Below, in pieces: positions 2,981-60,702 of a stretch of DNA of 64,000 nucleotides (positions are counted from its first letter, which is position 1; each line of letters opens with the position of its first letter). Origin of the DNA: Patescibacteria group bacterium (GTDB taxonomy: Bacteria; Patescibacteriota; Patescibacteriia; UBA2591; CALHIP01); contig JAOACJ010000009.1 in assembly GCA_026417895.1 (NCBI GenBank), positions 2,128-66,127 of the forward strand. Direction: 5' to 3'. A model generated the notes under the pieces. That model searched no databases. It was not told where the DNA came from and saw nothing but the letters and a program-made list of their open reading frames with translations. A program made the position numbers and the translations under genes.

Positions 2981-3850
2981 TTAACAATTTTTTAGATAAT
3001 CCCTAAGTGCTAATTTCCAATTTCTTAATCTTTTAAACTTTGTATTAAGCAGTATACTATATCTGGGTCTTTTGGCAAGAGTTTTATATTCTAAAGTCTG
3101 ACAAGGTAAAATTTTTATTTTAAGTTTTTTTATTTTAATAATTTCTTTAGCCAATTTATACCAAGTAGTGATTCCTTCATTAGTTAAATGGTAAATACCG
3201 GCTGGTCTTTGGCTCGACAATAATTCCTTAGTTGCTTGGGCCAAATCAAAAGTATAGGTTGGCTTACCAAACTGATCATTGATGACCTTCAATTCTTTTT
3301 TTTCTTTAGCCAATTTTAAAATAGTCTGAACAAAATTTTTGTGTTTTTTTGGCTCAACATACGATCCAAAAAGCCAGAAAGTTCTGAGAAGATAAAATTT
3401 AAAGTTTGGATTTTGAAATTTGAGATTTAAAATTGCTTGCTCGCCGAATAATTTTGACAGACCGTATTTATTCACTGGATTCTTTGGTCTATCATTTTCT
3501 CGATATCCTTTTTTCTTTTTCCCATCAAAAACATAATCCGTTGAATAATGAATAAAAAGGGCACCAATCTCGGCACAAATTTTAGCTAAAGACTTCACTG
3601 CCGTGGCATTAATTTTTTTTGCTTTGACAAACTCTTTTTCTGCTTTTTCCACATTAGTATAAGCAGTTGCGTTAATAACAATTTTTGGTTTCAATCTCTT
3701 AATTTTTTTCTCAACTTCTTTTTGATCGGTAATATCTAAATTTTTGCGATGCCAACAAATTGGCTTGTCTTTTTTAAAAACAAAAGAAAGGTCAGAGCCT
3801 AACATACCTTTGGCGCCAAGAATTAAAATTTTATTCTTATCTTTCCACAT
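2981..3850 (-). CDS. rmlD: dTDP-4-dehydrorhamnose reductase
   Basis: 289 aa with an N-terminal Rossmann GxxGxxG (ILILGAKGMLGSDL) and RmlD-like YSTDYVFDG and YGLSK motifs. Confidence 0.8.
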   Translation of the reverse strand: MWKDKNKILILGAKGMLGSDLSFVFKKDKPICWHRKNLDITDQKEVEKKIKRLKPKIVINATAYTNVEKAEKEFVKAKKINATAVKSLAKICAEIGALFIHYSTDYVFDGKKKKGYRENDRPKNPVNKYGLSKLFGEQAILNLKFQNPNFKFYLLRTFWLFGSYVEPKKHKNFVQTILKLAKEKKELKVINDQFGKPTYTFDLAQATKELLSSQRPAGIYHLTNEGITTWYKLAKEIIKIKKLKIKILPCQTLEYKTLAKRPRYSILLNTKFKRLRNWKLALRDYLKNC

Positions 3851-4040: not shown

Positions 4041-4655
4041 TCATTTTATTTTCTCTTTTATTTTCATTAAAGAAATGATGGCGCTTCTTTCTTGTTCGTC
4101 AAGTTTTCGAGTAATATATTTAATTGTTTCGACAATTGAGGGTAGATAAACATATTCTAAAGCATTAACCCGGCGACGAGTTTTTTCAATTTCTAAAGAA
4201 AGTAAATGAGCCGAATTTTCCAATTCGGCTAATTTTAAAATATCATTTAGTAATGCAGAAAAAATTTTCAAAAAATTATCAAGTTCAATACTAGAAAAAA
4301 CTAAAGAATAACAAAAACAATCGCCTTCCTCTTGAAACTGAAAATCAGGAATGGTCACATTCATAATATTTTTAGTCGTTAAGGTTAATTTTATTTTCTT
4401 TGATGAAGTAGCAAATGCCTCTTCTAAAACCTCCGGCCTTGTTTCAACGGAAGCAAAAACAAAACTTTTTAAAGCGAGCTGAATTTCTTTTTCTATTTTT
4501 TCTGTTAACAACCGCGTCTCTTTAATGATTTTTAAAAATTCTCTCATCAGAGAGTCTCTTTTTTCTTTTAAAAGTTTATAACCATAAGAAGCGAGCTCTT
4601 TTCTTTTTTTGAGCCTTAGAAGCTCCATGCGGGTTGGGTTGATGGTGAGTCTCAT
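4041..4655 (-). CDS. atpD: V/A-type ATP synthase subunit D
   Basis: MRLTINPTRMELLRLKKRKELASYGYKLLKEKRDSLMREF is a typical V-type D N-terminus. It is the last gene of the V-ATPase operon. Confidence 0.85.
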   Translation of the reverse strand: MRLTINPTRMELLRLKKRKELASYGYKLLKEKRDSLMREFLKIIKETRLLTEKIEKEIQLALKSFVFASVETRPEVLEEAFATSSKKIKLTLTTKNIMNVTIPDFQFQEEGDCFCYSLVFSSIELDNFLKIFSALLNDILKLAELENSAHLLSLEIEKTRRRVNALEYVYLPSIVETIKYITRKLDEQERSAIISLMKIKEKIK

Positions 4656-4757
4656 AATTTAGATTAAGCAATAAATTTCAATGTATATCACGAAATATAT
4701 TTCTATAAGTTTCAGAAACTAATAAAAATTCATAGAAACTTCTAGATACTCATTGAA

Positions 4758-6134
4758 TTAGCTGATGCGAGATAAATATTTATTGATATAAACATCTTTG
4801 ATTCTTTTCAATTCCTGTCTCGGTAAGATGGCTAAAAGTTGCCAAGCCAAATCTAATGTCTCAAAAATCGTTCGATCTTCGTATAAACCTTGCCTGATAA
4901 ACCGATTTTCAAATTCTTGAGCAAATTTTAAGTATTTTTGGTCTAATTCTGTCAAAGCTGCTTCACCTAAAATAGTTGCCAATTCTCTGGCTTGTTTTCC
5001 CTGGGCATAGGCAGAAAAAAGTTGATTAGAAATGCCTGGATGATCTTCTCTTGTTTTTCCTTCACCAATACCCTTGTCTTTCAATCTTGAAAGTGAGGGT
5101 AAAACATCAACTGGTGGATAAATACCCTTCCGATGAAGTTCGCGAGAAAGAATAATCTGACCTTCGGTAATATAACCAGTTAAGTCAGGAATAGGATGGG
5201 TCTTATCATCTTCTGGCATTGAGAGAATGGGAATCTGGGTGATAGAGCCCTTTTTATTTTTTAAACGACCAGCTCTTTCGTAAAGAGTAGCTAAATCCGA
5301 ATACATATAACCGGGGTAACCGCGTCTGGCTGGGACCTCTTTTCTGGCGGCAGAGATTTCTCGCAATGCTTCACAATAGTGAGTCATATCAATCAAAATA
5401 ACCAAAACATGCATCTCCTTTTCAAAAGCAAAATATTCAGCCGTGGTTAAAGCAATTCTCGGCAAAGTAATTCTTTCAATAACTGGGTCATCAGCCAAGT
5501 TGACAAATAAAACAGCCCTTTCTATCGCCCCGGTTTCTTTGAAATCTTTAATAAAATATTCAGCCTCTTCAAAAGTAATACCCATAGCACCAAAAACAAC
5601 AGCAAATTTCTCTCCGCCTTTAATCAGTTTAGCTTGACGAGCAATTTGTGCTGCAATTTCTAGGTGAGGTAAACCAGCTCCAGAAAAAATCGGCAATTTT
5701 TGACCACGAACCAAAGGATTCATAGCATCAATTGAAGAAATACCGGTTTGAATGAATTCATTAGGATAATCTCTTGCCTCAGGATTAATCGGTGCACCAT
5801 TAATGTCTAACCTCGCTTCAGGAATAATTTTTGGACCACCGTCAATTGGTAAACCGGAACCAGAAAAAATTCGACCCAACATTTCTTCCGCCACATCAAT
5901 TTCCATGGTTTTACCTAAAAATTTTGCTTTTGAGCCTTCGAGAGAAATACCTCTTGTTTCTTCAAACATCTGAATAATGGCTTTGTCTTCATCAACTTCC
6001 AAAACGCGACCGCGTCGAATTTCGCCGTTAGGCAATTCAACCTCAACCAGCTCCTGATAAGTAACTCTTTCTACTCCTTGGACAATTAAAAGTGGTCCGG
6101 CAATTTCTTTGATTGTTTTGTATGACCTAAGCAT
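4758..6134 (-). CDS. atpB: V/A-type ATP synthase subunit B
   Basis: 458 aa, non-catalytic B-subunit motifs (GPLLIVQGV..., PIDGGP). Sits next to the A subunit. Confidence 0.9.
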
Positions 6135-6205
6135 AGAGATAATTTAAATTTAAGAATGGGTATAGATAAATATTTGCTCAAATTTTCTTGCCTCAGTCTT
6201 CTTAA

Positions 6206-7939
6206 TTATAAATTTTCTATTTCATCAATTAAATCTTCGATTTTCTCAAGTTCTTTTTCTGAGATAAATTTTATTTTCGCTATTTTCTCGCGCAGAGGAG
6301 AAGAAGAAATTTCTAAAAATGGCTTTCCTTCAATTAATCTTTTATTGGCTACTTCATGAAAGGTAATAATTGTTTTCAGCATCAGATACTGTTTCTTTAA
6401 AGAAGTATAAGTATCAATCTCGTCAAAAGCATTTTGTTGAAGAAAATCCTCGCGAATTGATTTAGCGGTTAAAAGTGTTAACTGGTCTTTTTCAGATAAT
6501 GATTCAACACCAACCAATCTAACAATTTCTTGAAGCTTCGCTTCTTCTTGTAAAATATCCATCGCCTTTGTCCTTAAAAGAGGAAAATCAGAAGCAATTT
6601 CTTTTTTCAAAAAATCATCAAGATCTTGGGTATAGAGAGAGTAGCTGGTTAACCAATTAAGAGCTGGAAAATGTCTTTGACTAGCTAAATTATCATCAAG
6701 GGCCCAGAAAACTTTGGTGACGCGCAAGGTATTCTGGGTGACTGGTTCAGAAAAATCCCCACCAGGTGGCGAAACGGCGCCAATGATGGCTAAGGAACCA
6801 ATTCTTTCTTCCTTGCCTAAACAGATAACTTCACCGGCCCTTTCATAAAAACCAGCTGTTCTGGAACCTAAATAAGCGGGATAGCCTTCTTCACCCGGCA
6901 TTTCTTCTAAACGACCAGAAACTTCTCTTAAGGCCTCAGCCCAACGAGAAGTTGAATCAGCCATTAAAGCCACTTTATAACCCATATCGCGAAAATATTC
7001 AGCGATGGTAATACCGGTATAAATTGAAGCTTCGCGAGCTGCCACTGGCATATTTGAAGTATTGGCAATTAAAACGGTTCTTTTCATTAAAGGCTCACCC
7101 GATCTTGGATCAAGAAGATGAGGAAATTCTAACAAGACATCAGCCATTTCATTACCTCTTTCACCACAGCCAATAAAAATAATAATTTCGGCATCAGCCC
7201 ATTTGGCTAATTGATGTTGAACAACGGTTTTACCGCTGCCAAATGGTCCAGGCACACAGGCCGTTCCCCCTTTCGCCACCGGGAAAAAAGTGTCAATCAC
7301 TCGCTGGCCGGTCACCAATGGCTCCTTTGGCATTATTCTTGCTTTAACTGGTCTAGCTTGACGAATTGGCCATTCTTGCTTCATTGTTATTTCTCTTATT
7401 CCTTTTTTTGTCTCAATTAAAGCAATAACCTCTTCGACGGTAAATTTTCCTTTTTTAATTTCTTTGATTTTTCCTTTAATGTTTGGTGGAACCATAATCC
7501 GATGTTCAACTAAACTTGTCTCCTGAACGCTACCTAAAATATCTCCGGCCTCAACCTCTTCTCCCTTTTTAACTTTTGGTTGAAAATCCCATTTTTTATT
7601 TCTCTCAAGAGCTGGTAATTCAATGCCTCGACTAATATAGTCACCAAATTCTTCTCGCATTAAATTTAACGGTCTTTGAATACCGTCATAGATTGAGCTA
7701 ATTAAGCCAGGACCGAGTTCGACAGTTAAAGGCTTGCCCTCAAGATAAATTGGTTCACCTGGCCCTAAGCCAGCGGTTTCTTCGTAAACCTGAATTGCCG
7801 CTTCGTCACCTTCGATTTTAATAATTTCGCCAATTAATTTTTTCTCAGAAACTTTGGCTAAATCATACATTTTCACACCAGTCATCTTTTTACCAATGAC
7901 TAATGGACCAGAAATTTTTTTGATAAAACCTTCTTGCAT
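6206..7939 (-). CDS. atpA: V/A-type ATP synthase catalytic subunit A
   Basis: 577 aa with Walker [18 protein letters not shown] and conserved A-subunit regions. Confidence 0.92.
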
Positions 7940-7951
7940 ATTTTTATTATT

Positions 7952-8278
7952 TTATTTTTTATTTTGAAAAAGTATATCACTGCCAACGGCTTTTTCGACA
8001 ATTTTCTTTAACTCTCTTAAACCATATCCGGTGCTACCTAAATGGGTTGGTAAAGAAACGACGGCCGGAATAGTTGATGTTTTTAAAGGCAACAGTTCTT
8101 CTTCCAATTTTTCTTCCCAATCCTCAGTGATAAAAACAATGGCAAAATTATCTTGACTAATTTTTTTGATTGCTTCTTTTCCTTCTTCCAAATTAGTAAT
8201 GGGAAAAATTTCTAAATTAAAAGCTTTGAAACCAAAAATGACATCTTTATGACCAATAATACCAATTTTATATTCCAT
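7952..8278 (-). CDS. atpF: V/A-type ATP synthase subunit F
   Basis: 108 aa, MEYKIGIIGHKDVIFGFKAFNLEIFP matches V-type F. Lies between C and A. Confidence 0.8.
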   Translation of the reverse strand: MEYKIGIIGHKDVIFGFKAFNLEIFPITNLEEGKEAIKKISQDNFAIVFITEDWEEKLEEELLPLKTSTIPAVVSLPTHLGSTGYGLRELKKIVEKAVGSDILFQNKK

Positions 8279-8298
8279 ATTTCTATATTTATTTCTAA

Positions 8299-9288
8299 TT
8301 AATATATTTCTACCCTTTCTTTTAATAAATCCGCTTCGACTTTATTTAATTTACCGCTCATAATTAATCTAACATTTTTGTTGGCATTCTTTTTAGCATA
8401 AAAATAGGCAACCACTACTTCTGGACCATAGGCAATGTATTTTGCTTTTCTTAAATATTCAATCTCTGCTTCAAAAAATCTTTTTTCTAATAACCAGGGT
8501 TTTTTTTCTCTTAAATATTCTAAAAAATACTTGGCTAAAGAAGGGGGGACAATTTTACTAAAATATTCAAGGGCAATTTCTAAATCTTGGTGATAAAAAT
8601 TGATAAAGTCGTCAGTTTTAATTCGGCCGGAGCTAATTAAAGCTTCTTTTAAAAATTCAATCTCCTTTCCTAAATTTTTTAATCGTAAAAAAATTCTCAG
8701 ATTTGTTAAATCAATTTTTAAATTAACAAAGTCAATTAAAAACTGATTTTTAAGTCTTTTGGCTATTTTTTTTAAAAGAGAAAAGTATTCTCGATCAAAG
8801 AAAAATTCTATTTGATAGGGTAATGGCTGTTGATGAAAGAATTGATTAGCTTGAGTAATAAAAGTTTGAATTTCTTCATCAATTTTTATTTTTTCTTCTT
8901 GAAGAATGATTTTTTTTAAAATTGTTGGTTCAAAAAAACCAAAAGGAAGAAGTAAGTAATCTAAATCTTTGTTAAATAATTTTTCTTTGAAAATCACTTT
9001 TAAATTATGGAAGTCGTATTCTAAAAGGAGAAATTTTATCAAGTCTTTGTCAGGAACAATTTGCCATAATAATTTTTTATTCTCCAGTAAATCATCTGAG
9101 ATGACTTGTTCAAATTCTTCCGGCTTTTTTTCAAAAAGATGTTCGGCGTAGTCGGTGTCATAAAAAACCTTGAAGGCTGTTGCTAGATCTGGTGCCCCCA
9201 ACATTCTTTCCAAATCTACTCGATCAAGTAATTTTGTTTCCAGGTATCTAATTTTACCGGTAGCAAAAGTATAATTTGAAATGTTCAT
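8299..9288 (-). CDS. atpC: V/A-type ATP synthase subunit C (d-type)
   Basis: 329 aa, in the C slot between E and F. Length and helical composition fit. Confidence 0.75.
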   Translation of the reverse strand: MNISNYTFATGKIRYLETKLLDRVDLERMLGAPDLATAFKVFYDTDYAEHLFEKKPEEFEQVISDDLLENKKLLWQIVPDKDLIKFLLLEYDFHNLKVIFKEKLFNKDLDYLLLPFGFFEPTILKKIILQEEKIKIDEEIQTFITQANQFFHQQPLPYQIEFFFDREYFSLLKKIAKRLKNQFLIDFVNLKIDLTNLRIFLRLKNLGKEIEFLKEALISSGRIKTDDFINFYHQDLEIALEYFSKIVPPSLAKYFLEYLREKKPWLLEKRFFEAEIEYLRKAKYIAYGPEVVVAYFYAKKNANKNVRLIMSGKLNKVEADLLKERVEIY

Positions 9289-9396
9289 ATAGTTAATTGA
9301 GCAGACAATAAGTTTCTATTTATTTCTATTTATTTCTACAAATTACAGAAATTGATAGAAATATGCTTTGGTGAAATTTATAGAAATTTGTTGTAG

Positions 9397-9981
9397 TTAT
9401 CCAAATAGAATTTTGCTGACTTCTATCTCTGTTTTTTCTCTAATAATTTTGATTAAATTTTCAAAACTATTATCAATCTCTAAGTTTTCAGAAGAGAAGA
9501 TAAAGCCACCCTTTATCGCTAATGATTTTTTAGCAAGATGAAATTTCTTTTTACTTTCGGCAATAGCTTTTTCGGTAACCCTCTCTCTATTTTGAGCCGG
9601 TATAATCTCGCCTCTCTCTGGACATCTTTTCAGTAAATTCAAAATTAACTTCTGATAGTCAGAGTCGCTAAGATTTGATAATTCGTCTAAAACCTCTTGA
9701 TAAATGTTATCTAAAATTTCTTGCTTCTTTTGTAAAAGTAAATTTTTTGTCTCTAAATTAAGACGGATTTGGGTCTGTTGAATTCTCTTTTGCACCTCGG
9801 CTTCCGTTTCGGCCAAAATTTCGCTCTTTCTTTTCTCAATCTCGGCCCGATATTTTTCTTCAAGTTTTCTAACCTCTTCTCTGTTCCTTTCTTCAATTTC
9901 TTTGATTTTTTCTTCTGTTTCTTTTTTAATTTTTTTTAAGATGTCATCTAAAGCCATAGGAAATTTATGGAAATCATCCAA
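9397..9981 (-). CDS. atpE: V/A-type ATP synthase subunit E
   Basis: 194 aa with a charged coiled-coil N-terminus (KKIKKETEEKIKEIEE...). It is in the E position. The true start may be an internal Met because the ORF track also uses TTG/GTG starts. Confidence 0.8.
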   Translation of the reverse strand: MDDFHKFPMALDDILKKIKKETEEKIKEIEERNREEVRKLEEKYRAEIEKRKSEILAETEAEVQKRIQQTQIRLNLETKNLLLQKKQEILDNIYQEVLDELSNLSDSDYQKLILNLLKRCPERGEIIPAQNRERVTEKAIAESKKKFHLAKKSLAIKGGFIFSSENLEIDNSFENLIKIIREKTEIEVSKILFG

Positions 9982-10058
9982 ATAATTCGAGTATATCCAA
10001 ACGCTCCGAATAAAATTATTCGTCGCGTCGAAATAAATTTGTTAATCTCGGGATTATA

Positions 10059-10535
10059 TTAACTCACTTTAATACCGTTAAGCAATAAAATTGTTACTAG
10101 TAAGCCTAAAACGGCATAAGTCTCAACCATAGCCGCCATAATGACTGGCTTACCTGATTCGCCGGGTTTTTTGGCAACGACATGGACGCCAGCGGCAGCA
10201 ACCCTTCCCTGCATAATGGCAGAAATTAAACCAACCACTCCAACCGGCAAACAGGCAAAAAGAATCTGCCAACCAACCTCTAAAGAAATAGTTGGCATCT
10301 GTCCCCCTAAAAGTCCAACTTTTTGTAAAGACATAATGGCGCCCAAAAATCCGTAAATACCTTGAGTACCTGGCAAAGCCTGAAGTAAGAGAACCTTACC
10401 AAATTTTTCTGGGTCTTCTGAAACTAAACCAGCCGCTACTTCGCCAACAATTCTTACCCCTAAAGCTGATCCAATGCCAGCTAAAGCGGCGGCCAAAACT
10501 GCTCCTAAAATGGCTAAAGCTAATCCTAATTCCAT
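10059..10535 (-). CDS. atpK: V/A-type ATP synthase proteolipid subunit K (c-ring)
   Basis: 158 aa, four TM helices, Gly/Ala-rich (MELGLALAILGAVLAAALAGIGSALG), conserved Glu in MVETYAVLG. Confidence 0.88.
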   Translation of the reverse strand: MELGLALAILGAVLAAALAGIGSALGVRIVGEVAAGLVSEDPEKFGKVLLLQALPGTQGIYGFLGAIMSLQKVGLLGGQMPTISLEVGWQILFACLPVGVVGLISAIMQGRVAAAGVHVVAKKPGESGKPVIMAAMVETYAVLGLLVTILLLNGIKVS

Positions 10536-10548
10536 AAGTGTTAAATTA

Positions 10549-12528
10549 TTATTTATAATTGATTAATTGAACATATTTTCCTTCTTTTCTAAACGGCTTA
10601 AACCTGACACCACCTCCTTCCATAAATTTGGGGAAGAACTCAACAAATTGAAGACGAGCCGAATGAATAAAAGCACCCAAGGCATTTATCCCAATATTGA
10701 AAAGATGTCCGCCAATTAAGATAAAGATAGCCAAGATAAAACCAACAAAAGGAATCATTTGGCTGAAAATTTTGGCAATCAGATTGATGACCATACCAAT
10801 AATACTAGTGGCTAATCCCAAAGCTAAAAGTCGAGAGTAAGAAAGTGTATCAGAAAGATAACCAATTAAGCCGTAAAGACTTAAAACGCCAGCCGGAATT
10901 TTTAAGAAAATATTTTTTTGTTTCCGACCTTGAGTCAGGACAACTAAAATAAGACCGATCAAAACTAAATATTTGGCTAAATTGTGAGAAATAGAAAGAA
11001 ATTTACTTTGAGAACCGATAAAGATTAACAACGAACTAATCAAAAATATCCATGGGCCATTATCTAAAATGGCATTCAGGGTGTCTTTATTTTTTATTTT
11101 CCAATACAGATTAATTATTAAGCCAGCCAAAATTTGAAAGACACCTAAAACCAAAGAAATAATTAAAAGCTGTAAAGGATTCTTGATCGGATCAATGATT
11201 CTTATTTGAATCAAAAATTCTTTAACTGGTTTTAAAAATTCTGGCAAAGTTTCCAATTCCAAACCAAACCAACTACCCAAAATGGCACCAATAAAAATAG
11301 TCGTTAGTCCTAACCAAAGGAAAAGTCTAAAAAAATTTTTTGTTTTTTGGGGTAAATTTAAGAACTTAATTATAGTTATCGAGATGATGGTTAAAACTAA
11401 ACCATAGCCAGCATCAGAAAGACAAAGGGCGAAAAAAAGAACAAAAAATGGTGTTAAAAATGGAGTTGGGTCCGGCTCATGATATTTTGGCACCCCATAG
11501 ACATTGGTCACTGTTTCAAAGTCATTAACAAATTCCTTATTTTTTAGAAGAACTGGTACTTCTTCATCTGCCTTGACTGGCATTTCAATGATTTCAAACT
11601 CTGGCGTAATTCTTCTAAGCCCACTTTGAAGATCGGGCAATGAGTCCTTAACAACCCAAGCAAAAAGGAAGAGGGTAAAATTAGTTTTCTGGATTTTTTG
11701 TTTCACTTCTTCTTTTTCTTTTTGCCAAGAAAGCCAATCAAAGATAATTTTTAATTTTTCTTGTTGATTGGCTAAACGAGAAATTTTTCTTCTTACGATT
11801 TTCATTTTTGGCTCTAAAATTGCCAATTCATCTTCTAGGCGTTCAAAATATTGAGCTGGCGAAGATTTAAAAGGTGGTAATTCTATTTTTATAAATTGAT
11901 TTTCTTCTAAAAATTTCAATAAGTCTTTCTCTGTGACTCGATCAAAAATAATCAAACAATAAACATCTTTTTCTAACTGATCAACTTTGATGACCTCAGT
12001 TAATTTAATTTCATTTTTTATTTTCTCTAAAAATTTTGGCCAATTGATCAAAGAAATTTTCCCAGTCAAAAAAGAAAAATTTTTAGTCTTTTTTATCTCC
12101 GCTAAATTTAAATCTAATTTTCGCCAAGGATAAACTTTTTCTTTTTCTTCTTGAATTTTTTTAATTTTAGAAGAAAGAGTGGTAAAATCCATTTCCAATT
12201 TTTCTGTCTCTTGAATAATCATTGCCCACGGTGTTTGAGAAACCGTTTTGTTTAATTCTTGTTTGGTCAGTTTAATTTTTGGTGATAAAAAGGTTGTAAT
12301 TTTTTGCTTTAAACTGACCTTCTCTTTTTTTTGATAGGGTGCTAAAAAATCAATGGCAAATTTTACTCTAGCTAATTGATAGTTTAAATCAATCATCTCT
12401 TTTTCTTCTCTGTGGCCCTCGCCTAAATCAATGATCTCAACGGTGCCAAGTTCCTGTAAAAAACTCAAAATTTCTCGTCGAAATGATTTTGAAGCAACCA
12501 AACAAATTTTTTTTAATTGAGCGACCAT
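10549..12528 (-). CDS. atpI: V/A-type ATP synthase subunit I (a-subunit)
   Basis: 659 aa with a hydrophilic N-terminal half and a multi-TM C-terminal half, in the I slot. Confidence 0.85.
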   Translation of the reverse strand: MVAQLKKICLVASKSFRREILSFLQELGTVEIIDLGEGHREEKEMIDLNYQLARVKFAIDFLAPYQKKEKVSLKQKITTFLSPKIKLTKQELNKTVSQTPWAMIIQETEKLEMDFTTLSSKIKKIQEEKEKVYPWRKLDLNLAEIKKTKNFSFLTGKISLINWPKFLEKIKNEIKLTEVIKVDQLEKDVYCLIIFDRVTEKDLLKFLEENQFIKIELPPFKSSPAQYFERLEDELAILEPKMKIVRRKISRLANQQEKLKIIFDWLSWQKEKEEVKQKIQKTNFTLFLFAWVVKDSLPDLQSGLRRITPEFEIIEMPVKADEEVPVLLKNKEFVNDFETVTNVYGVPKYHEPDPTPFLTPFFVLFFALCLSDAGYGLVLTIISITIIKFLNLPQKTKNFFRLFLWLGLTTIFIGAILGSWFGLELETLPEFLKPVKEFLIQIRIIDPIKNPLQLLIISLVLGVFQILAGLIINLYWKIKNKDTLNAILDNGPWIFLISSLLIFIGSQSKFLSISHNLAKYLVLIGLILVVLTQGRKQKNIFLKIPAGVLSLYGLIGYLSDTLSYSRLLALGLATSIIGMVINLIAKIFSQMIPFVGFILAIFILIGGHLFNIGINALGAFIHSARLQFVEFFPKFMEGGGVRFKPFRKEGKYVQLINYK

Positions 12529-15788: not shown

Positions 15789-15823
15789 TTGGTTTTTGGT
15801 TATTGGTTATTGGTTATTGGTTA
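15789..15823. repeat. heptanucleotide tandem repeat TTGGTTA x5 (first unit TTGGTTT)
   Basis: Read directly from the sequence. It fills most of the 44-nt gap between the rplK stop and the UXS-like start, and the last unit overlaps the rplK stop codon. Confidence 0.9.
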
Positions 15824-16246
15824 ATCTACAATCTCTAAACCCATTTGCTTAGCTGTTCCTTCGATAATTTTCATTGCTTGTTCAAGATTATTGGTGTTTA
15901 GATCGGGCATTTTAATCTTGGCAATTTCTCTGATTTGCGACCGGCTAATCTTGCCTACTTTCTCTTGAAGAGGTTTGCCGGAACCTTTTTCAACACCAGC
16001 TGCTTTTTTTAGAAGTTCACTGGTTAAAGGGGTTTTAATGAAAAAATCAAAAGACCTGTCTTCATAAACAACTAATTTCACCGGTAGGGTCTGGCCGATT
16101 TTGTCTTTCGTCAAATCATTGAATTTTTTACAGAAATCAGCGATGTTAATACCGGCCTGTCCTAAAGCTGGTCCAACCGGCGGAGCTGGTGTTGCTTGAC
16201 CACCGGGTACAAGAAGTTTGACAATGGTTTTTATTTTCTTAGCCAT
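15821..16246 (-). CDS. rplK: 50S ribosomal protein L11
   Basis: [35 protein letters not shown]... is a canonical L11. Confidence 0.95.
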
Positions 16247-23522: not shown

Positions 23523-24932
23523 TTACTTTTCTTGCCAACGGGTAGGTGGCAAGCAAGTTGACTTGCCTGATTTCATATAGCCATAAGGTGATTCCTGATA
23601 AGGCGGACAAAGAGGTTCAAGACAGGAAAGAGCCGTCACCCAATAGTGATAATTGACGTTCGCAATAATACTTTTGTCTTCATAAGCACAAAGGCTTTCA
23701 CCACAAACATCCTCGGGTCTAATATTTTCGGCAATTCTTCGACACTGTGATAGTTCACAGTCATTTCTATTGTCTTTATTTTTGACTGCTCGATAAACAT
23801 TATAGCCAACCGCCCCTCCGACTGGTAGCCATTGAACAGTTATTTCACCGCACTTTGAAGAGAGAATTGGCTCCAGAGGCTGTGATGGCGCGCATAAAAC
23901 CGTTGTCCCAGAAGCAGCATCACTGATTATTCCGTCACCGTTTAAATTCCAGGCTTGAACTTGATAGCGATATATCTGTCCACCGCTTAAACCAACATCT
24001 TGCCATTTACATATATCACCACTACAATCAACCTCATTGACAGAAATATTGGCAATAAGGACTCCATTTGTCTGTGGATTACACCCCTCACCCCGACAAC
24101 GATAAATTTTATAACCTTGAGCACACTTAGTTGGTGGTTGCCAATTTAAAAGTAAAGACTGACAATTTTGAGAAACCGATCTGACGGTTAAATTTCTTAC
24201 CTGATCAGGTGGATTTTTTAAACAATAACTTTGATAAGCACCGAGCCAGCCTAAACCAGCACCAGTAATTTGTGGATTATAAGTTGAACTCCAGGCAAAA
24301 CCTGTTAATTCTTTATGATTAAAACCAAAATCTTCTAAAGAAAGACCATAGCTAATACCGCCAGTTGTCTGTCCTCTTAATTTAATCCAGCCATCAGTTG
24401 TTGGTGACGACCAAACTACCTTTGCCCAACCAAAAACTTTTTTGCCTTCCCCAAGACAATTAGTGCCCGAAACATTTTCTCCTTTGCAAGCCCAAGGAGT
24501 AAAATTATCAGGTGAATTAATAAATGAACAAGTCCCACAACCTTCGCAAGTAATATAATTACTACAACTTGGACAATGAGCACACTTACAGGTCTCACCA
24601 AAACAAATCCAGCCAACATTTGGTGACCAACCATAACCAGAAATTTTATTGGTGGAAGAATCTAATTTTAAGCCGTAATTGATATTAGTTGGACAATTAT
24701 TTTCCGGTTGACCATCATTGTTATAGTCGTTATAACAATTCAAAGAAATCCAGCCAATGCCACCCGGATAACTGCCATCACTTCTACTCCAAAGCCAACC
24801 ACGGATGTTATCACTCCTCCCCCCTTGAACTAAATGTGGTTTTTCTATGTGAAAAACAAAAAATAATAAAGCAGCCGCCCCTATGAGACTTAAGATTAAT
24901 ATAAAAACTTGTCGTAACCAAATATTTTTCAT
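23523..24932 (-). CDS. Cys-rich secreted protein with C-terminal fibronectin-III-like domains
   Basis: N-terminal TM/signal segment, many Cys with Trp/Gly motifs (GWICFGETCKCAHCPSCSNYITCEGCGTC), and two FN3-like modules (GYKIYRCRG...YRYQVQAWN; ITVQWLPVGGAVGYNVYRA). Confidence 0.5.
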   Translation of the reverse strand: MKNIWLRQVFILILSLIGAAALLFFVFHIEKPHLVQGGRSDNIRGWLWSRSDGSYPGGIGWISLNCYNDYNNDGQPENNCPTNINYGLKLDSSTNKISGYGWSPNVGWICFGETCKCAHCPSCSNYITCEGCGTCSFINSPDNFTPWACKGENVSGTNCLGEGKKVFGWAKVVWSSPTTDGWIKLRGQTTGGISYGLSLEDFGFNHKELTGFAWSSTYNPQITGAGLGWLGAYQSYCLKNPPDQVRNLTVRSVSQNCQSLLLNWQPPTKCAQGYKIYRCRGEGCNPQTNGVLIANISVNEVDCSGDICKWQDVGLSGGQIYRYQVQAWNLNGDGIISDAASGTTVLCAPSQPLEPILSSKCGEITVQWLPVGGAVGYNVYRAVKNKDNRNDCELSQCRRIAENIRPEDVCGESLCAYEDKSIIANVNYHYWVTALSCLEPLCPPYQESPYGYMKSGKSTCLPPTRWQEK

Positions 24933-55813: not shown

Positions 55814-55873
55814 AGTATAAAGAGCAGCGAGATAAAGAGCAGCGTGATAAAGAGCAGCGTGATAAAGAGCAGC
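55814..55873. repeat. four tandem 15-bp direct repeats (G/A)(T/A)GATAAAGAGCAGC
   Basis: Read directly in the divergent intergenic region between rplI and the 56085 ORF. Confidence 0.9.
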
Positions 55874-55903
55874 CTTGTTATTGGTAATAAAGAGATGTCG
55901 AAA

Positions 55904-55983
55904 ATATCTATAAGTATCTATCGGTATCAATCAATATCCATGAATATCTATCGATATCTATCAATATCTAAGGTATCTTGACT
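55904..55983. repeat. eight degenerate 10-bp helical-phase repeats (A/G)TATCTATCR
   Basis: atatctataa / gtatctatcg / gtatcaatca / atatccatga / atatctatcg / atatctatca / atatctaagg / tatcttgact. Confidence 0.85.
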
Positions 55984-56005
55984 TTTTTGCAAATTTTGCT
56001 ATCTT
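55978..56005 (+). promoter_or_regulatory. candidate promoter TTGACT-16-TATCTT for the 56085 ORF
   Basis: ttgact at 55978-55983 and tatctt at 56000-56005. Two GC-rich hairpins at 56013-56070 follow in the leader. Confidence 0.35.
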
Positions 56006-56084
56006 GAAAATGTCGGGTTAGTCGCCTCTTCGGCGACTAAATCCAAGCCCGACCATCCGCTGTAAGCGGATGATGGAGGAAAAA

Positions 56085-57545
56085 ATGAGAAGTTTGACAT
56101 TGTTGATAATCTTGTTGCATTTTCTTGTTTTCTCGACTTCGGCGGCGACCGCGCAAACATGGTGGACTTACGAGGAACTCGGTAACGCCGCGCCTTGTAA
56201 GGGGATCGAAACGGAAAACGGATATGTCCATACAGGGGGCACCTTTAACGTGCCGGGTGGAGGTTGTTACTTAGCAAAAACCAATAAAGTAACTGGTGCT
56301 CTTGACTGGTATCAATATTATCCCAGTCTCTTTTTCGAGCAAAGTTGGGGATATGATTTAGTCCAGACGCCAGATGGTGGCTTCGCTATTCTTTCTACCG
56401 ATGATATGGGTTTCGGCAATGTCTTTAGACTGATTAGGACGAACCCGATGGGAGAAAGTTTGTGGAACAAATTGATTGCCCCTCAAAATCAAGCCGTTGC
56501 CGCTCCTTATTATCTCGTTCTTTTTTCGCCTGATTCTGGATTTATTATGGGCGGTCGAAACGATGGAGGAATTATTATGGCCCGGACGAACAAGTACGGG
56601 GAAACGCTATGGACGCGTCGCGGGGTGGCAAGAGAAAGTATTTACCGTTCTATGGAAGTCAGGGGCATAATAACAAAAACAAACACGATCATCTATCTCC
56701 TTGGTTTAGCAACTGTTGATTTGCCAACCGGACAAAGCATTTGGCGAAGTTTTTTGGCAACAATTAATGCTGCTGGACAAGTGATTAATAAAAGGGAATA
56801 TGTTGACGAGTGGCAAAGAATGGTGCATTTATATGGTCAAACCTTTTTTCAACTTGATAATTCCGGCTTTCTAATAGCTGGTATAAGAGGCGTCGCAAGT
56901 TCTAGTGCAAATCCTGTTGAATCAATTTTTGTTTTTCTTTTGAAAACCGACTCTTTGAAAAATGAACTCTGGAGAAAGATGTATTTTTTACCAAGCATAC
57001 ACAGTGATTTTTACAGGTGTGGCGTCGAAAAAGTTTGGCAAAATGAAAATACGATTAATATTGCGGTTTGCTTTTATAATTCGTCATTGTTCCCGAAAGG
57101 GGGAATTATTACCACGGATTTAGAGGGCAATTTTCTAAACTGTATCACCTACTCCCATCCGATTTATACCTATGTTTCTTTAAGAGACGCTATGAAAACA
57201 AGTGATGGACACGCAGTTTTAGCTGGACGCTCTCCTCCAGCCGGACCCCCAGCTTATGTGACCCTTCTTAAAACTCCTTTAAGTGGCATTAGTGAAAATT
57301 CTTTTTTCTCTTCCCAATTCTCTACTCTTAAAGTTTTTCCCAATCCAAGCACCGGCTTAGTTAATTTTCACTTGCCAACTGGGTACAACAGCAGCAAAGT
57401 AAAAATCTATGATGCCACCGGAAGAATAGTCAAGACATTCGAATTTCAAAATCAATTTCGGGTGAAACTTTCACCCGGCATCTATCTCTGTGAGACCGCC
57501 GCTGAGACCGACGCAAAATTTAAGATTATCATCCTGGGACAATAA
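56085..57545 (+). CDS. secreted repeat (beta-propeller-like) protein with a C-terminal T9SS sorting domain (Por_Secre_tail)
   Basis: RBS GGAGG five nt before the ATG at 56085, and a signal peptide. The C-terminal 70 aa (LKVFPNPSTGLVNFHLP...KVKIYDATGRIVKTFEF...SPGIYLCE...KFKIIILGQ) fit the T9SS CTD consensus. GC is well above neighbouring genes. Confidence 0.6.
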   Translation: MRSLTLLIILLHFLVFSTSAATAQTWWTYEELGNAAPCKGIETENGYVHTGGTFNVPGGGCYLAKTNKVTGALDWYQYYPSLFFEQSWGYDLVQTPDGGFAILSTDDMGFGNVFRLIRTNPMGESLWNKLIAPQNQAVAAPYYLVLFSPDSGFIMGGRNDGGIIMARTNKYGETLWTRRGVARESIYRSMEVRGIITKTNTIIYLLGLATVDLPTGQSIWRSFLATINAAGQVINKREYVDEWQRMVHLYGQTFFQLDNSGFLIAGIRGVASSSANPVESIFVFLLKTDSLKNELWRKMYFLPSIHSDFYRCGVEKVWQNENTINIAVCFYNSSLFPKGGIITTDLEGNFLNCITYSHPIYTYVSLRDAMKTSDGHAVLAGRSPPAGPPAYVTLLKTPLSGISENSFFSSQFSTLKVFPNPSTGLVNFHLPTGYNSSKVKIYDATGRIVKTFEFQNQFRVKLSPGIYLCETAAETDAKFKIIILGQ

Positions 57546-57567
57546 ATATTGTCCCAGGTTTTTTTAT
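57533..57567 (+). terminator. intrinsic terminator: 10-12 bp stem (cctgggacaa/ttgtcccagg) followed by T9
   Basis: Read directly. It sits at the stop codon of the 56085..57545 ORF, between the two convergent genes. Confidence 0.65.
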
Positions 57568-57568
57568 T

Positions 57569-59233
57569 TTATTCAGGAGTTCCTGGTCCGCAATCAAGCT
57601 GCCAATCACACATAGAACAAGTTTTTTGAACCGCTCGATAGAAAATACAAGATCGGCTATCGCCTACTTTACAACTATCACAACGAGGATGGCTATAGGC
57701 ACCGGCTATCTGGAAATCAGGTAAATAAGAAACACTACTTCGACAAGTACCCCAGAAAGTACCTCCTGTTAAACAAGGAGGTTGATCACAACTAATAGTC
57801 GAAGAACAACAAACCCCTCCGCAACATTGATACCCAGAAGGACAAGTTGGGGAGCTACAAACTTCTGTTGATAAATCTACACAATGTGGAATTGGACATT
57901 CGCTTGGATTATTTGGATCACAATTACAACACCGACCAGTACCGGTACAATAATAATAATCAGAATAAGGACAACATCTGTTTTCACAAGCGCAATGACC
58001 AGAAGAACAATTTGATACAGTACATGGAGTACCTGCTCGACAAAAACCACTAACACAAGTTTGAGTTCCGGGATAACTACATATACCAAAAGGAGGTGTA
58101 GGATCGTTGCCTTCACAGACCTCACCACAATTACGAATCCCATCACCACAAGAAGTAACCCAATTACCTGATAAGTTAGGATCACACTTTTGCCGGGCTA
58201 TGCTTGGATGGCAACTATTGGGAATTACAGAAGCATTACTATCATCACAATCACCTCTTTGAATTGGACCGGTGTAATTTGGGTAATTCAGTGTATCTGC
58301 TTCTCTATAACCCGTACCAAGTTGAAGACAATCGGTGTCTAATGGATACCGACCCGCGATTTCAAAATTACCGAGATATTTGTCTGAATCAGAGTCGCGT
58401 ACGCAAATTTTGGCAGGCATCCCATTAATACTATCTGGTCTATTCCAGCCAATCAAAATAGAAGGGTTGGTAGTATATGGACCAAAAACAATTTTTCCGG
58501 TGCCGGTCAAATCAACACCCTTGTTTGTTCCTTTGGTAGCAAAAATCAAATAAGCTGGTTTTTTCTCTTGCAAATTCAAAGGATTCACCCAGCCACTCAA
58601 GTTAACGGTGGCACTACCAATAACCAGTCGGCCAGTTTCTGTGCCAATAACTAAACCTCTCTCTGGACTCTGACTATCAGTAATTAAACTACAGGATTGA
58701 GTAAGAGTTAAATTACCAATCCATAATGGACAGGTGTTCTGAGGAGCCCAATCTAATTCCAGTTTATCTTCCCTCCCTTCTTTATTTTTTACCAAAAAAT
58801 TTGTCCAAACAATTTCTTCTATTTCTTTAGGTAAAACTATTTCCGCCTGCCAAACTGATTCTTTTTCATCATAGCTCATAAACATCTCTTTTTCAAAATC
58901 TGGACGGGCAATGATTTTAAATTTCACCTCCGCTAAACCAGCTGGGTCTTCAATTTTGATTTTCGCCCAAATTTTTTCACCGCCCTTTACTTCCCTTGGC
59001 CGTTTGGAAAAAATACCGCCTAAAAATTTTGGATAAACACCTGGTGCCGAGGAAACACGAAAAGCATATTCACTGTTTTTTGGTTTCTCGGTCGGTTCAA
59101 AATGGTTCAGTTTTTCAATCTCTTCTTCGCTCAAAACATAGTTTTTTTGTTTTTCGACTTTGGAAGTTTGCCAAAAGAATAAACCTAAAACAACGAAAAC
59201 CAAAATAATGATGAGAGGAATGATTTTTTTCAT
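57569..59233 (-). CDS. very Cys-rich secreted protein (Myxococcus-type CxDG...GExCDDGN-like repeat); last gene of the pilus operon
   Basis: N-terminal TM anchor. The C-terminal 250 aa are about 20% Cys (CGDGIRNCGEVCEGND..., CCGGVCCSS...). Confidence 0.5.
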   Translation of the reverse strand: MKKIIPLIIILVFVVLGLFFWQTSKVEKQKNYVLSEEEIEKLNHFEPTEKPKNSEYAFRVSSAPGVYPKFLGGIFSKRPREVKGGEKIWAKIKIEDPAGLAEVKFKIIARPDFEKEMFMSYDEKESVWQAEIVLPKEIEEIVWTNFLVKNKEGREDKLELDWAPQNTCPLWIGNLTLTQSCSLITDSQSPERGLVIGTETGRLVIGSATVNLSGWVNPLNLQEKKPAYLIFATKGTNKGVDLTGTGKIVFGPYTTNPSILIGWNRPDSINGMPAKICVRDSDSDKYLGNFEIAGRYPLDTDCLQLGTGYREADTLNYPNYTGPIQRGDCDDSNASVIPNSCHPSIARQKCDPNLSGNWVTSCGDGIRNCGEVCEGNDPTPPFGICSYPGTQTCVSGFCRAGTPCTVSNCSSGHCACENRCCPYSDYYYCTGTGRCCNCDPNNPSECPIPHCVDLSTEVCSSPTCPSGYQCCGGVCCSSTISCDQPPCLTGGTFWGTCRSSVSYLPDFQIAGAYSHPRCDSCKVGDSRSCIFYRAVQKTCSMCDWQLDCGPGTPE

Positions 59234-59263
59234 AGACGTAAAAGTTAATTTTTAATTTATTTT

Positions 59264-60676
59264 TTATCTCACTTTTAAGCCTGAAGTGTTTTGATCTGAA
59301 GCTAAATTGGTTGCCCGGCCCGGCCAATCAAAACGGGGAGCAATTAAACGATAGGAAACATTAATCGGGGCGGTGCCGTAAATGAGAAGTTGATTTTTTG
59401 TGGGTTGAAATTCATACCAAACTTGTGCCCGTCCCTCGGGTGTTAAATTCACCACTAAATCCTGCCAATTTTGACCAAAGGCTGTAATCTGGCGAAAAAG
59501 CCATAAATCAGAACCTTTTTCTGTTCGGTTAAAATCAATAGTCGCTAAATAAATTTGATTTTCAACTTCTGGCATTTGAAATTTGTCATTTGACATTTGT
59601 AAACGAAGTTTGCCCACCACCTCTTCTTTTAAACCAACCGTTGAATGGCCATAAGTGGCATATTTTATTCCTTCAATTTCATAAATTGGATCGATTTCAT
59701 TGACTAAGAGCTTACCGGCCGGGCTTAAGGTCATAATAGGCGTTGATCCATAACCACCATCTTTATACCAAGCAAAAGTGCCACTGTTAGTAACAAAACG
59801 GATCCATTCACCAGAGCCCTGAGAATACAATCCTAGATCAGTCCCGGAGATGGCGTTCGTACCTTTTTGAATAATACCATTTCTTACATTGATCGCGCCA
59901 TTGATATCTAATTTTTGAATCGGACTGGTTGTCCCGATGCCGACGTTGGTGCCGTTGTTAAACAAATTACTATCTGCGACCCAAGCACTTCCACTGTGTC
60001 TGAGCGTTTGACCAGTAGTTCCTGAAGGCAAAAGTCCTGAAGGTAGAGAACAAGTCAAGGTTGGTCCTACTGCCGTGACATATTGACCTGACGGACAAGC
60101 AGAAGGAAATGAAGTTAAACGTGCCCATGGAACCGAACCGCCTTGAAGAATGCCAGTCCACCTCACGTCACCACTTACATCTAATTTATATCCTGGACTG
60201 GTTGTTCCGATGCCGAGATTACCGGTCGGTAAAATTGTGAATCGATCATCGTTATTTGTTCCACTACCCCAGAAACGAAGGCTATTATTTGATTTATTCA
60301 CATAAATAGCCCAATGATCATTAGTCCCTGTTCCATATTTAAGTTGCAACTCTGGATTTTCATTGGTGTCAGTATCAGTAATTCGCAAACGACAAGTTGT
60401 GCCACTTGGAGCAGTAAGTTCCATTCTTTCGGCTGGATTGACCGTCCCGATTCCTAATTGGCCATTAAATAAGACATTACCTGATTGAAGTGTTCCCGGT
60501 AAAGAACCTTGTAACCAAACCGGTCCGGGTAATTGGCCTTGTGGTGGTGGTTGGGTTGGCTCCTGCCAAGTCTGAGCCAAAACTGCAGGAATGGCTAAAA
60601 AGAAAAGTGATAAAGCCAGTAAAAAGAGTCGACCAAATAACCGGCTTTTTTTAAAGAAGAAAGTTGCTTTTTTCAT
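59264..60676 (-). CDS. secreted tail-fibre-like repeat protein in the PilY1 position of the minor-pilin operon
   Basis: Signal peptide (…AVLAQTW). Repeated motifs GQLGIGTVNPAERMEL, GNLGIGTTSPGYKLDVSGD and GTNVGIGTTSPIQKLDINGA are typical of phage tail-fibre / beta-helical adhesin repeats. Confidence 0.5.
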   Translation of the reverse strand: MKKATFFFKKSRLFGRLFLLALSLFFLAIPAVLAQTWQEPTQPPPQGQLPGPVWLQGSLPGTLQSGNVLFNGQLGIGTVNPAERMELTAPSGTTCRLRITDTDTNENPELQLKYGTGTNDHWAIYVNKSNNSLRFWGSGTNNDDRFTILPTGNLGIGTTSPGYKLDVSGDVRWTGILQGGSVPWARLTSFPSACPSGQYVTAVGPTLTCSLPSGLLPSGTTGQTLRHSGSAWVADSNLFNNGTNVGIGTTSPIQKLDINGAINVRNGIIQKGTNAISGTDLGLYSQGSGEWIRFVTNSGTFAWYKDGGYGSTPIMTLSPAGKLLVNEIDPIYEIEGIKYATYGHSTVGLKEEVVGKLRLQMSNDKFQMPEVENQIYLATIDFNRTEKGSDLWLFRQITAFGQNWQDLVVNLTPEGRAQVWYEFQPTKNQLLIYGTAPINVSYRLIAPRFDWPGRATNLASDQNTSGLKVR

Positions 60677-60702
60677 AGGCGTAAAAGTTAATTTTTAATT
60701 TA

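Follow-up and report, generated by a model that had tools for sequence, protein, structure and literature searches.

A beta-propeller protein with a T9SS C-terminal domain in a Parcubacteria-type Patescibacterium: a probable xenolog on a self-contained cassette

The C-terminal domains (CTDs) of type IX secretion systems (T9SS) are treated as markers of the outer-membrane secretion system of Bacteroidota and their allies. Type A cargo proteins, such as NucA of Flavobacterium johnsoniae (PDB 8GLK, chain D) and RgpB of Porphyromonas gingivalis (CTD structures 7PQ4 and 5HFS), consist of a signal peptide, a functional domain and an immunoglobulin (Ig)-like CTD of about 70 residues at the extreme C-terminus. 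We analyzed a 64,000-nucleotide stretch of a Patescibacterial contig (JAOACJ010000009.1, hereafter the window), in which a gene at 56085..57545 encodes a protein of the same layout. The protein has the CTD motifs fPNPstG, iYDatGR and spGIY of Bacteroidota cargo, which are conserved with its homologs, scores above the cut-offs of the corresponding profiles, and finds its best structural matches among cargo CTDs. In contrast to the Bacteroidota systems, the host is a Patescibacterium with no T9SS visible in the window and, by its lineage, no outer membrane, so that neither translocation by SprA nor cleavage and anchoring by PorU can be assumed. We propose that the gene is probably a xenolog, carried on a self-contained cassette with an orphan T9SS CTD, in a bacterium of the Parcubacteria type; that is, a known kind of domain protein in an unexpected host.

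The assignment of the last 70 or so residues to a T9SS CTD had been made in a preliminary description of this DNA, and comparison against profile hidden Markov models confirmed it. The domain matched PF18962 over the full model (positions 1-75 of 75) with an E-value of 9.9e-9 and 35.8 bits against a cut-off of 27, and TIGR04183 (positions 1-71 of 72) with an E-value of 2.3e-9 and 37.1 bits against a cut-off of 23; FlgD_ig reached just 12.6 bits. The CTD ends three residues short of the stop codon of a protein that, by inspection, starts with a signal peptide. A separate AlphaFold2 (AF2) model of the last 80 residues contained seven strands, as did the corresponding part of the full-length model. 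Foldseek search with the CTD model yielded NucA in the translocon complex 8GLK (TM-score 0.71/0.75, root-mean-square deviation 2.3) and RgpB in 7PQ4 as the top two matches, both of them T9SS CTDs, with marginal E-values (2.7e-3 and 6.1e-3) owing to the small size of the domain. A PDB sequence search gave two best matches with E-values of about 0.03, the NucA CTD of 8GLK among them. A homolog search with the CTD alone returned four short, uninformative matches, and nothing was found in the literature on T9SS CTDs in the candidate phyla radiation (CPR) or in candidate division WOR-3.

The AF2 model of the whole protein (mean predicted local distance difference test (pLDDT) 83.5, predicted template-modelling score 0.80) starts with a signal helix, continues with seven blades of four strands each and, past a floppy linker, ends in the seven-strand beta-sandwich, in line with the propeller-like repeats noticed at first reading. 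Seven copies of the repeat T.DGG...G...L.KTD..G..LW are common to the target and to a broad family of propeller-CTD proteins (5689 representatives at E<=1e-3; those with names come from Flavobacteriales, Chitinophagales, Polaribacter and Eisenbacteria), which also share its architecture and size (about 450-520 residues). However, the identity to that family is only 20-27%. The target itself matched no Pfam beta-propeller family (e.g. DUF5122, PF17164, or PQQ_2, PF13360) at E<=1, whereas PF17164 or PF13360 is carried by its distant relatives. The best fold match of the propeller in the PDB is the C-terminal seven-bladed propeller of CylK (7RON and 7FH6; E 3e-13, TM-score 0.58-0.60); sequence identity is 14% and common catalytic residues are not apparent, so that the resemblance is one of fold only. 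Cleavage of the signal peptide is predicted before QTWW, and from the strand order in the model the N-terminal strand QTWWTY would complete the last propeller blade, which would account for the conservation of QTWW(T)Y in the family. The same coding sequence is deposited at NCBI as MCX7778904.1, an identical protein from the 66-kb contig of the metagenome-assembled genome (MAG) of a Patescibacteria group bacterium, where it is already named a T9SS type A sorting domain protein; its start is placed at 56070 (56070-57545, 491 residues). We prefer the start at 56085 because of the position of the Shine-Dalgarno (SD) sequence and the aligned starts of the homologs. The features of the gene and its surroundings are listed in Table 1.

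Table 1. Coordinates of the target gene, its encoded domains and its expression signals in the window
Feature	Position	Strand	Remarks
15-bp tandem repeat ATAAAGAGCAGCGTG, four copies	55817..55876	+	between rplI and the target; nowhere else in the window; four matches in 0 of 100 shuffles
10-bp phased repeats AATATCTATC (ATATCT), about seven copies	55903..55972	+	run up to the -35 box; partly alignable with L001
Predicted sigma-70-type promoter, TTGACT-16 nt-TATCTT with TG extension	55978..56005	+	CTTGACTTTTTT block common to L001, L098 and L089
Structured 5' leader (predicted)	56012..56072	+	bipartite hairpin P1 (56012-56053) and hairpin P2 (56054-56072); starts at the predicted transcription start
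SD sequence GGAGG	56075..56079	+	5 nt ahead of the ATG at 56085; kept in L001, L098, L089 and L091
Coding sequence	56085..57545	+	486 residues; preferred start
Sec-type signal peptide MRSLTLLIILLHFLVFSTSAATA (predicted)	56085..56153	+	by inspection; helix 2-23 in the model; same layout in homologs
Seven-bladed beta-propeller	56154..57278	+	residues 29-403 (491-residue numbering); AF2 model and fold match
Linker, low confidence	57279..57329	+	pLDDT <50 at residues 408-417
T9SS type A CTD, seven-strand Ig-like sandwich	57330..57542	+	extreme C-terminus; profile matches and models
Intrinsic terminator	57533..57567	+	stem includes the last codons, stop codon in the loop

The gene is foreign to its host in composition, codon usage and translation signals. 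It had been described as clearly richer in GC than its flanks, and the open reading frame (ORF) does exceed the window (0.419 vs 0.344). Local GC peaks at 0.47 in 400-bp segments and reaches 0.59 at 56141 in 100-bp segments, which lie above 0.50 at 56101-56280 and 56531-56680. However, the neighbours are as GC-rich (0.395 for 57569-59233 and 0.421 for 59264-60676), so that raw GC does not mark the gene as foreign, whereas GC at third codon positions (GC3), codon usage and the SD sequence do. The GC3 of the target, 0.394, is the highest among the 54 ORFs of the window; the other 53 span 0.19-0.35, and the two GC-rich neighbours have ordinary values (0.25 and 0.31, respectively). In synonymous codon usage the target departs further from the rest than any other ORF of the window (z -2.76), and its first 200 codons deviate even more (z -3.9). 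The strong ribosome-binding site noted in the preliminary description proved to be the sole full SD sequence among the 46 window genes checked, 42 of which have no SD-like motif at all and 4 of which have one.

The target is followed by its own strong terminator, as had been predicted. In the stem-loop at 57533-57558 a T run comes after a stem of 11 bp (-18.2 kcal/mol, z -5.6), and a terminator of the same design, built from the last codons, is also found in the loci L096, L089, L001 and L090. Upstream, folding of the predicted leader gave -36.5 kcal/mol (z -5.3), and the architecture is the same in L001. Copies of the leader were located at L001 475-535, L098 9926-9987, L096 about 3667-3712 and L089 53-70. 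In a structural alignment of three leaders, fitted by hand and hence leaning toward structure, every base pair was kept and five or six pairs were changed on both sides; the P2 hairpin also holds in L096. Nucleotide identity is 72-74% over promoter and leader, 61-64% over the coding sequence and 44% at the third positions of the latter. Rfam search over the whole window gave nothing at the gathering threshold and only noise for the leader (E>5), and no tRNAs were found in the window. The leader may be a small candidate for a new cis-regulatory RNA or mRNA stabilizer, and the 10-bp phased repeats in front of the promoter would possibly form an UP-like or regulator-binding region. Promoter, two-hairpin leader, SD sequence, ORF and terminator recur elsewhere as a unit, a cassette as judged from the aligned sequences. 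The sigma-70-type promoter and the strong SD sequence argue against a recent direct origin from Bacteroidota.

The remaining genes of the window belong to a Patescibacterial (CPR) backbone of the Parcubacteria type, in line with the CPR-like gene content recognized at first reading. The 80 relatives of the window's MiaB that were kept for comparison are nearly all Patescibacteria, judged by record title or shared synteny, with at most 59% identity (56-59% for the best Patescibacterial MiaB). Automatically given titles such as 'Saccharibacteria' and 'Gammaproteobacteria' in this set are unreliable, and a few weak matches come from other phyla. The synteny dnaE-thrS-miaB is common to the window and to Parcubacteria MAGs, and the window also has a V/A-type ATPase, peptidoglycan genes, and a cluster of type IV pilins with a prepilin peptidase (PilD). 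The ATPase operon of this Patescibacterium, at 4041-12528, encodes subunits A, B, I, the c/K proteolipid and others. In addition, the gene that comes after rplK (15821-16246) encodes an epimerase and is not rplA. A subgroup of Parcubacteria is reported to be without uL1 and without the anti-SD motif (PMC9297842), and the SD-poor genes of the window, together with rplK without a following rplA, match this subgroup.

No T9SS or outer-membrane genes were found among the 24 window ORFs scanned, which include all large unknown and secreted ones; as to the T9SS, this agrees with the preliminary description. CPR bacteria are reported to be without outer membrane, TonB and PilQ (PMC6744442), and from this lineage knowledge we infer that the T9SS is absent from the whole genome and that the CTD is probably an orphan in this host. 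The canonical, intact state of the CTD and the restriction of the scans to the window would also fit ordinary T9SS cargo, with the system encoded elsewhere in the genome of this organism or of the true owner of the DNA. The Parcubacteria-like backbone, the reported cell envelope of CPR and the outcome of the scan in the 64-kb window make ordinary cargo very improbable. Similarly, a 1.7-kb cassette of a co-occurring diderm, misjoined into a Patescibacterial contig during assembly, would agree with the composition unlike the flanks and with the related cassettes in other organisms. However, the gene is internal to the 66-kb contig, with Patescibacterial genes on both sides and no junction repeats, and its sequence is unlike every other copy, the closest one being 74% identical over a short piece. 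We therefore find a chimeric or contaminant origin hardly credible.

The relatives of the target cross phyla. A word-indexed search found one relative with 50% identity (P0002) and otherwise at most 27% identity over most of the length, the named ones being mostly Bacteroidota and Eisenbacteria; one distant named relative stands in tandem with other CTD genes and a 3-deoxy-D-manno-octulosonic acid (Kdo) transferase. Exhaustive HMMER search gave 5 proteins at E<=1e-30 against the 5689 at E<=1e-3. The former constitute a small subfamily of P0002, P0067, P0069 and the pair P0068 and P0070, with the pair P0071 and P0072 just below the E threshold. The window protein falls in this small, long-branched subfamily in a neighbour-joining tree of 30 family members, which is star-like and shows no donor clade. 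Metagenome scans for close relatives gave none in one case and one weak match in the other. P0068 and P0070 are the adjacent halves of one gene in MAGs of candidate division WOR-3 (MEO0091104.1 and MEO0091105.1 in GCA_039801465.1, with the same locus in GCA_965649255.1), a diderm lineage and the only named other carrier of the cassette. P0215, an intact protein of that 90% cluster, shares 62% identity with the target over the propeller and 53% over the CTD. The best MiaB from Patescibacteria reaches just 56-59%, and the cross-phylum identity of the target exceeds what housekeeping proteins would lead one to expect. The earlier view of a horizontally acquired, 'Bacteroidetes-type' gene thus stands for the foreign character and the inter-phylum relatives, whereas the closest named relative is WOR-3 and not a member of the Bacteroidota.

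The WOR-3 copy (L098) shares with the target the promoter block, the two-hairpin leader, the SD sequence, the propeller and the CTD. It differs in its diderm context, with OEP/TolC, MFP, MacB, a two-component system, pst genes and two more CTD proteins nearby, in an ORF interrupted at a G7 run in both MAGs, and in having no strong terminator, with an LMWPc gene following directly. The cassette lies there between a 5' LMWPc remnant (9713-10000) and the intact LMWPc gene (11409-11816). The break at the G7 run (L098 10720-10790) could be explained by a slippage site, a pseudogene or a sequencing error. The closest copy of all, in L096, is frameshifted into pieces 74%, 51%, 51% and 46% identical to the target, and adjoins a homolog (L096 2747-3653; 48-50% identity) of window ORF 23523-24932, an fn3 surface protein. 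The copy encoding P0069, in L091, adjoins an IS256-type transposase. A fragment resembling an ATP-dependent DNA ligase occurs in L096 (2383-2568) and also beside the L091 copy (392-934).

The GC3 of the cassette departs from that of the flanking genes in each context having flanks: 0.39 vs 0.19-0.35 in the window, 0.38-0.42 vs 0.25-0.29 in L096, 0.34-0.37 vs 0.25-0.33 in WOR-3 and 0.28 vs 0.34-0.45 in L091. Therefore, no observed host looks like the original owner, and transfer may have occurred in either direction. The opposite history, in which this is an old native Patescibacterial family with WOR-3 as the recipient, and in which amino-acid content or expression level accounts for the odd composition, would agree with the WOR-3 copy being atypical in GC3, split at the G7 run and placed between LMWPc remnant and intact gene, as well as with the convergent pairing with a cys554 homolog in L090. 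However, a native gene would hardly be expected to have a strong SD sequence where the genome is SD-poor, or such deviant codon usage, the broad family is named almost only from diderms of the Fibrobacteres-Chlorobi-Bacteroidetes type, with other CTD cargo nearby, and none of the 80 Patescibacterial MiaB loci has a homolog of the target. As those relatives are distant and synteny downstream of miaB is lost, this last point is to be read with that divergence in mind. We consider a native origin improbable.

Several observations weigh against the xenolog interpretation. No flanking repeats, transposon ends, target duplications or insertion scars were found around the target in the window. The closest host relatives are just 56-60% identical in housekeeping proteins, so no empty-site comparison is available. 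In WOR-3, too, the copy has an atypical composition and is moreover split, and no donor stands out, so that transfer may have run either way. The absence of the T9SS is seen within the window scan and extended to the whole genome by inference. In addition, the propeller-CTD gene for P0079, which has an L001-type terminator, lies on the unrelated short contig L090, convergent with a 31% identical homolog (L090 1440-3071) of the window neighbour 57569-59233; if L090 is Patescibacterial, such genes may have resided at this locus for longer. A further counterpoint comes from the CTD: compared with the subfamily, P0079 has 20-27% identity in the propeller and 55-72% in the CTD, which argues for more than a passive relic. 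Against P0002, the CTD of the target is 46-49% and the propeller 52-54% identical, i.e. both are about equally conserved.

A second Patescibacterial protein with a CTD was found in L065 (ORF 14-2104; P0060, 763 residues) in the MAG contig CAYVXQ010000004.1. Similar to the target, it is a signal-peptide protein with a PF18962 CTD (35.5 bits) next to miaB, lying directly upstream of that gene. It differs from the target in its unrelated N-terminal domains, in a FlgD_ig match (28.6 bits) to the same CTD, and in a composition typical of its own contig. A search with this protein returned its own near-identical copy and CTD-only matches, and nothing else. Taken together, L065 and the P0079 gene in L090 suggest that in genomes of this kind the CTD may not be mere debris, a conclusion that hinges on L090 being Patescibacterial. 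The CTD might accordingly have been repurposed in Patescibacteria, as an Ig module for surface retention or ligand binding or as a signal for another sorting step, which would make the target a domesticated surface protein. Besides the stronger conservation of the CTD and the host-like L065 protein, its intact state in the window at the extreme C-terminus and the position of the gene beside the end of the operon for pilins and surface proteins speak for such a role. However, the weight of L090 depends on its being Patescibacterial, candidate machinery is neither known nor visible, and co-adaptation to the T9SS in a diderm donor would also give similar CTDs across different cargo. We regard a domesticated, functional CTD as unlikely.

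Based on these comparisons, we propose a history for the xenologous cassette. Horizontal transfer would have brought it from one AT-rich bacterium to another, unrelated one, and it would now reside, with its ORF intact, in a Parcubacteria-type Patescibacterium. Transcription would start from the strong sigma-70-type promoter, and the 5'-terminal hairpins would probably act as stabilizers or regulators of the mRNA. Export of the protein most likely takes the Sec route by way of the signal peptide, already recognized at first reading, and cleavage would occur before QTWW. Past the single membrane, the product would be set free as a seven-bladed propeller, probably a binding or glycan-directed module. 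Because the lineage is reported to be without an outer membrane, and so would be without SprA, PorV and PorU, the CTD would be unable to act as a T9SS translocation or anchoring signal in this host. It would persist as a folded Ig-like C-terminal module, either because it serves folding, stability or binding, or because decay has not yet reached it.

The gene is a naturally occurring test of the role left to a sorting domain after the loss of its machinery. An intact, well-conserved CTD in a CPR bacterium shows that a label derived from a domain ("T9SS sorting domain protein") can be misleading as to cell biology. The gene flow documented here between CPR and the diderm candidate phylum WOR-3 could also be a clue to host association. 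In a more far-reaching version, the cassette would mark a physical link between a Parcubacterial symbiont and a WOR-3-type host rich in T9SS CTDs. The CTD would be kept for docking the propeller onto the T9SS or the CTD-handling surface proteins of the partner, or for cargo mimicry, and the CTD 'dialect' shared with P0079 and the covarying leader would be parts of a selected unit. We offer this as a speculation that is quite improbable.

Downstream of the target, two adjacent surface-protein genes (57569-59233 and 59264-60676) are found on the minus strand. The former encodes a Cys-rich membrane-anchored protein and is the last gene of the window's pilin operon. A link between the target and the ORF 59264-60676 through a shared mature N-terminus AQTW had been suggested, but BLASTP finds no homology between the two proteins and the resemblance is fortuitous; in the model, QTWW(T)Y of the target family forms the first beta-strand of the propeller. 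Each of the two downstream genes is preceded by a 34-nt initiation region, AAATTAAAAATTAACTTTTACG[T/C]CTATGAAAAAA, at 59225-59258 and 60668-60701, respectively, which differ from each other by one base; two matches occurred in no shuffle.

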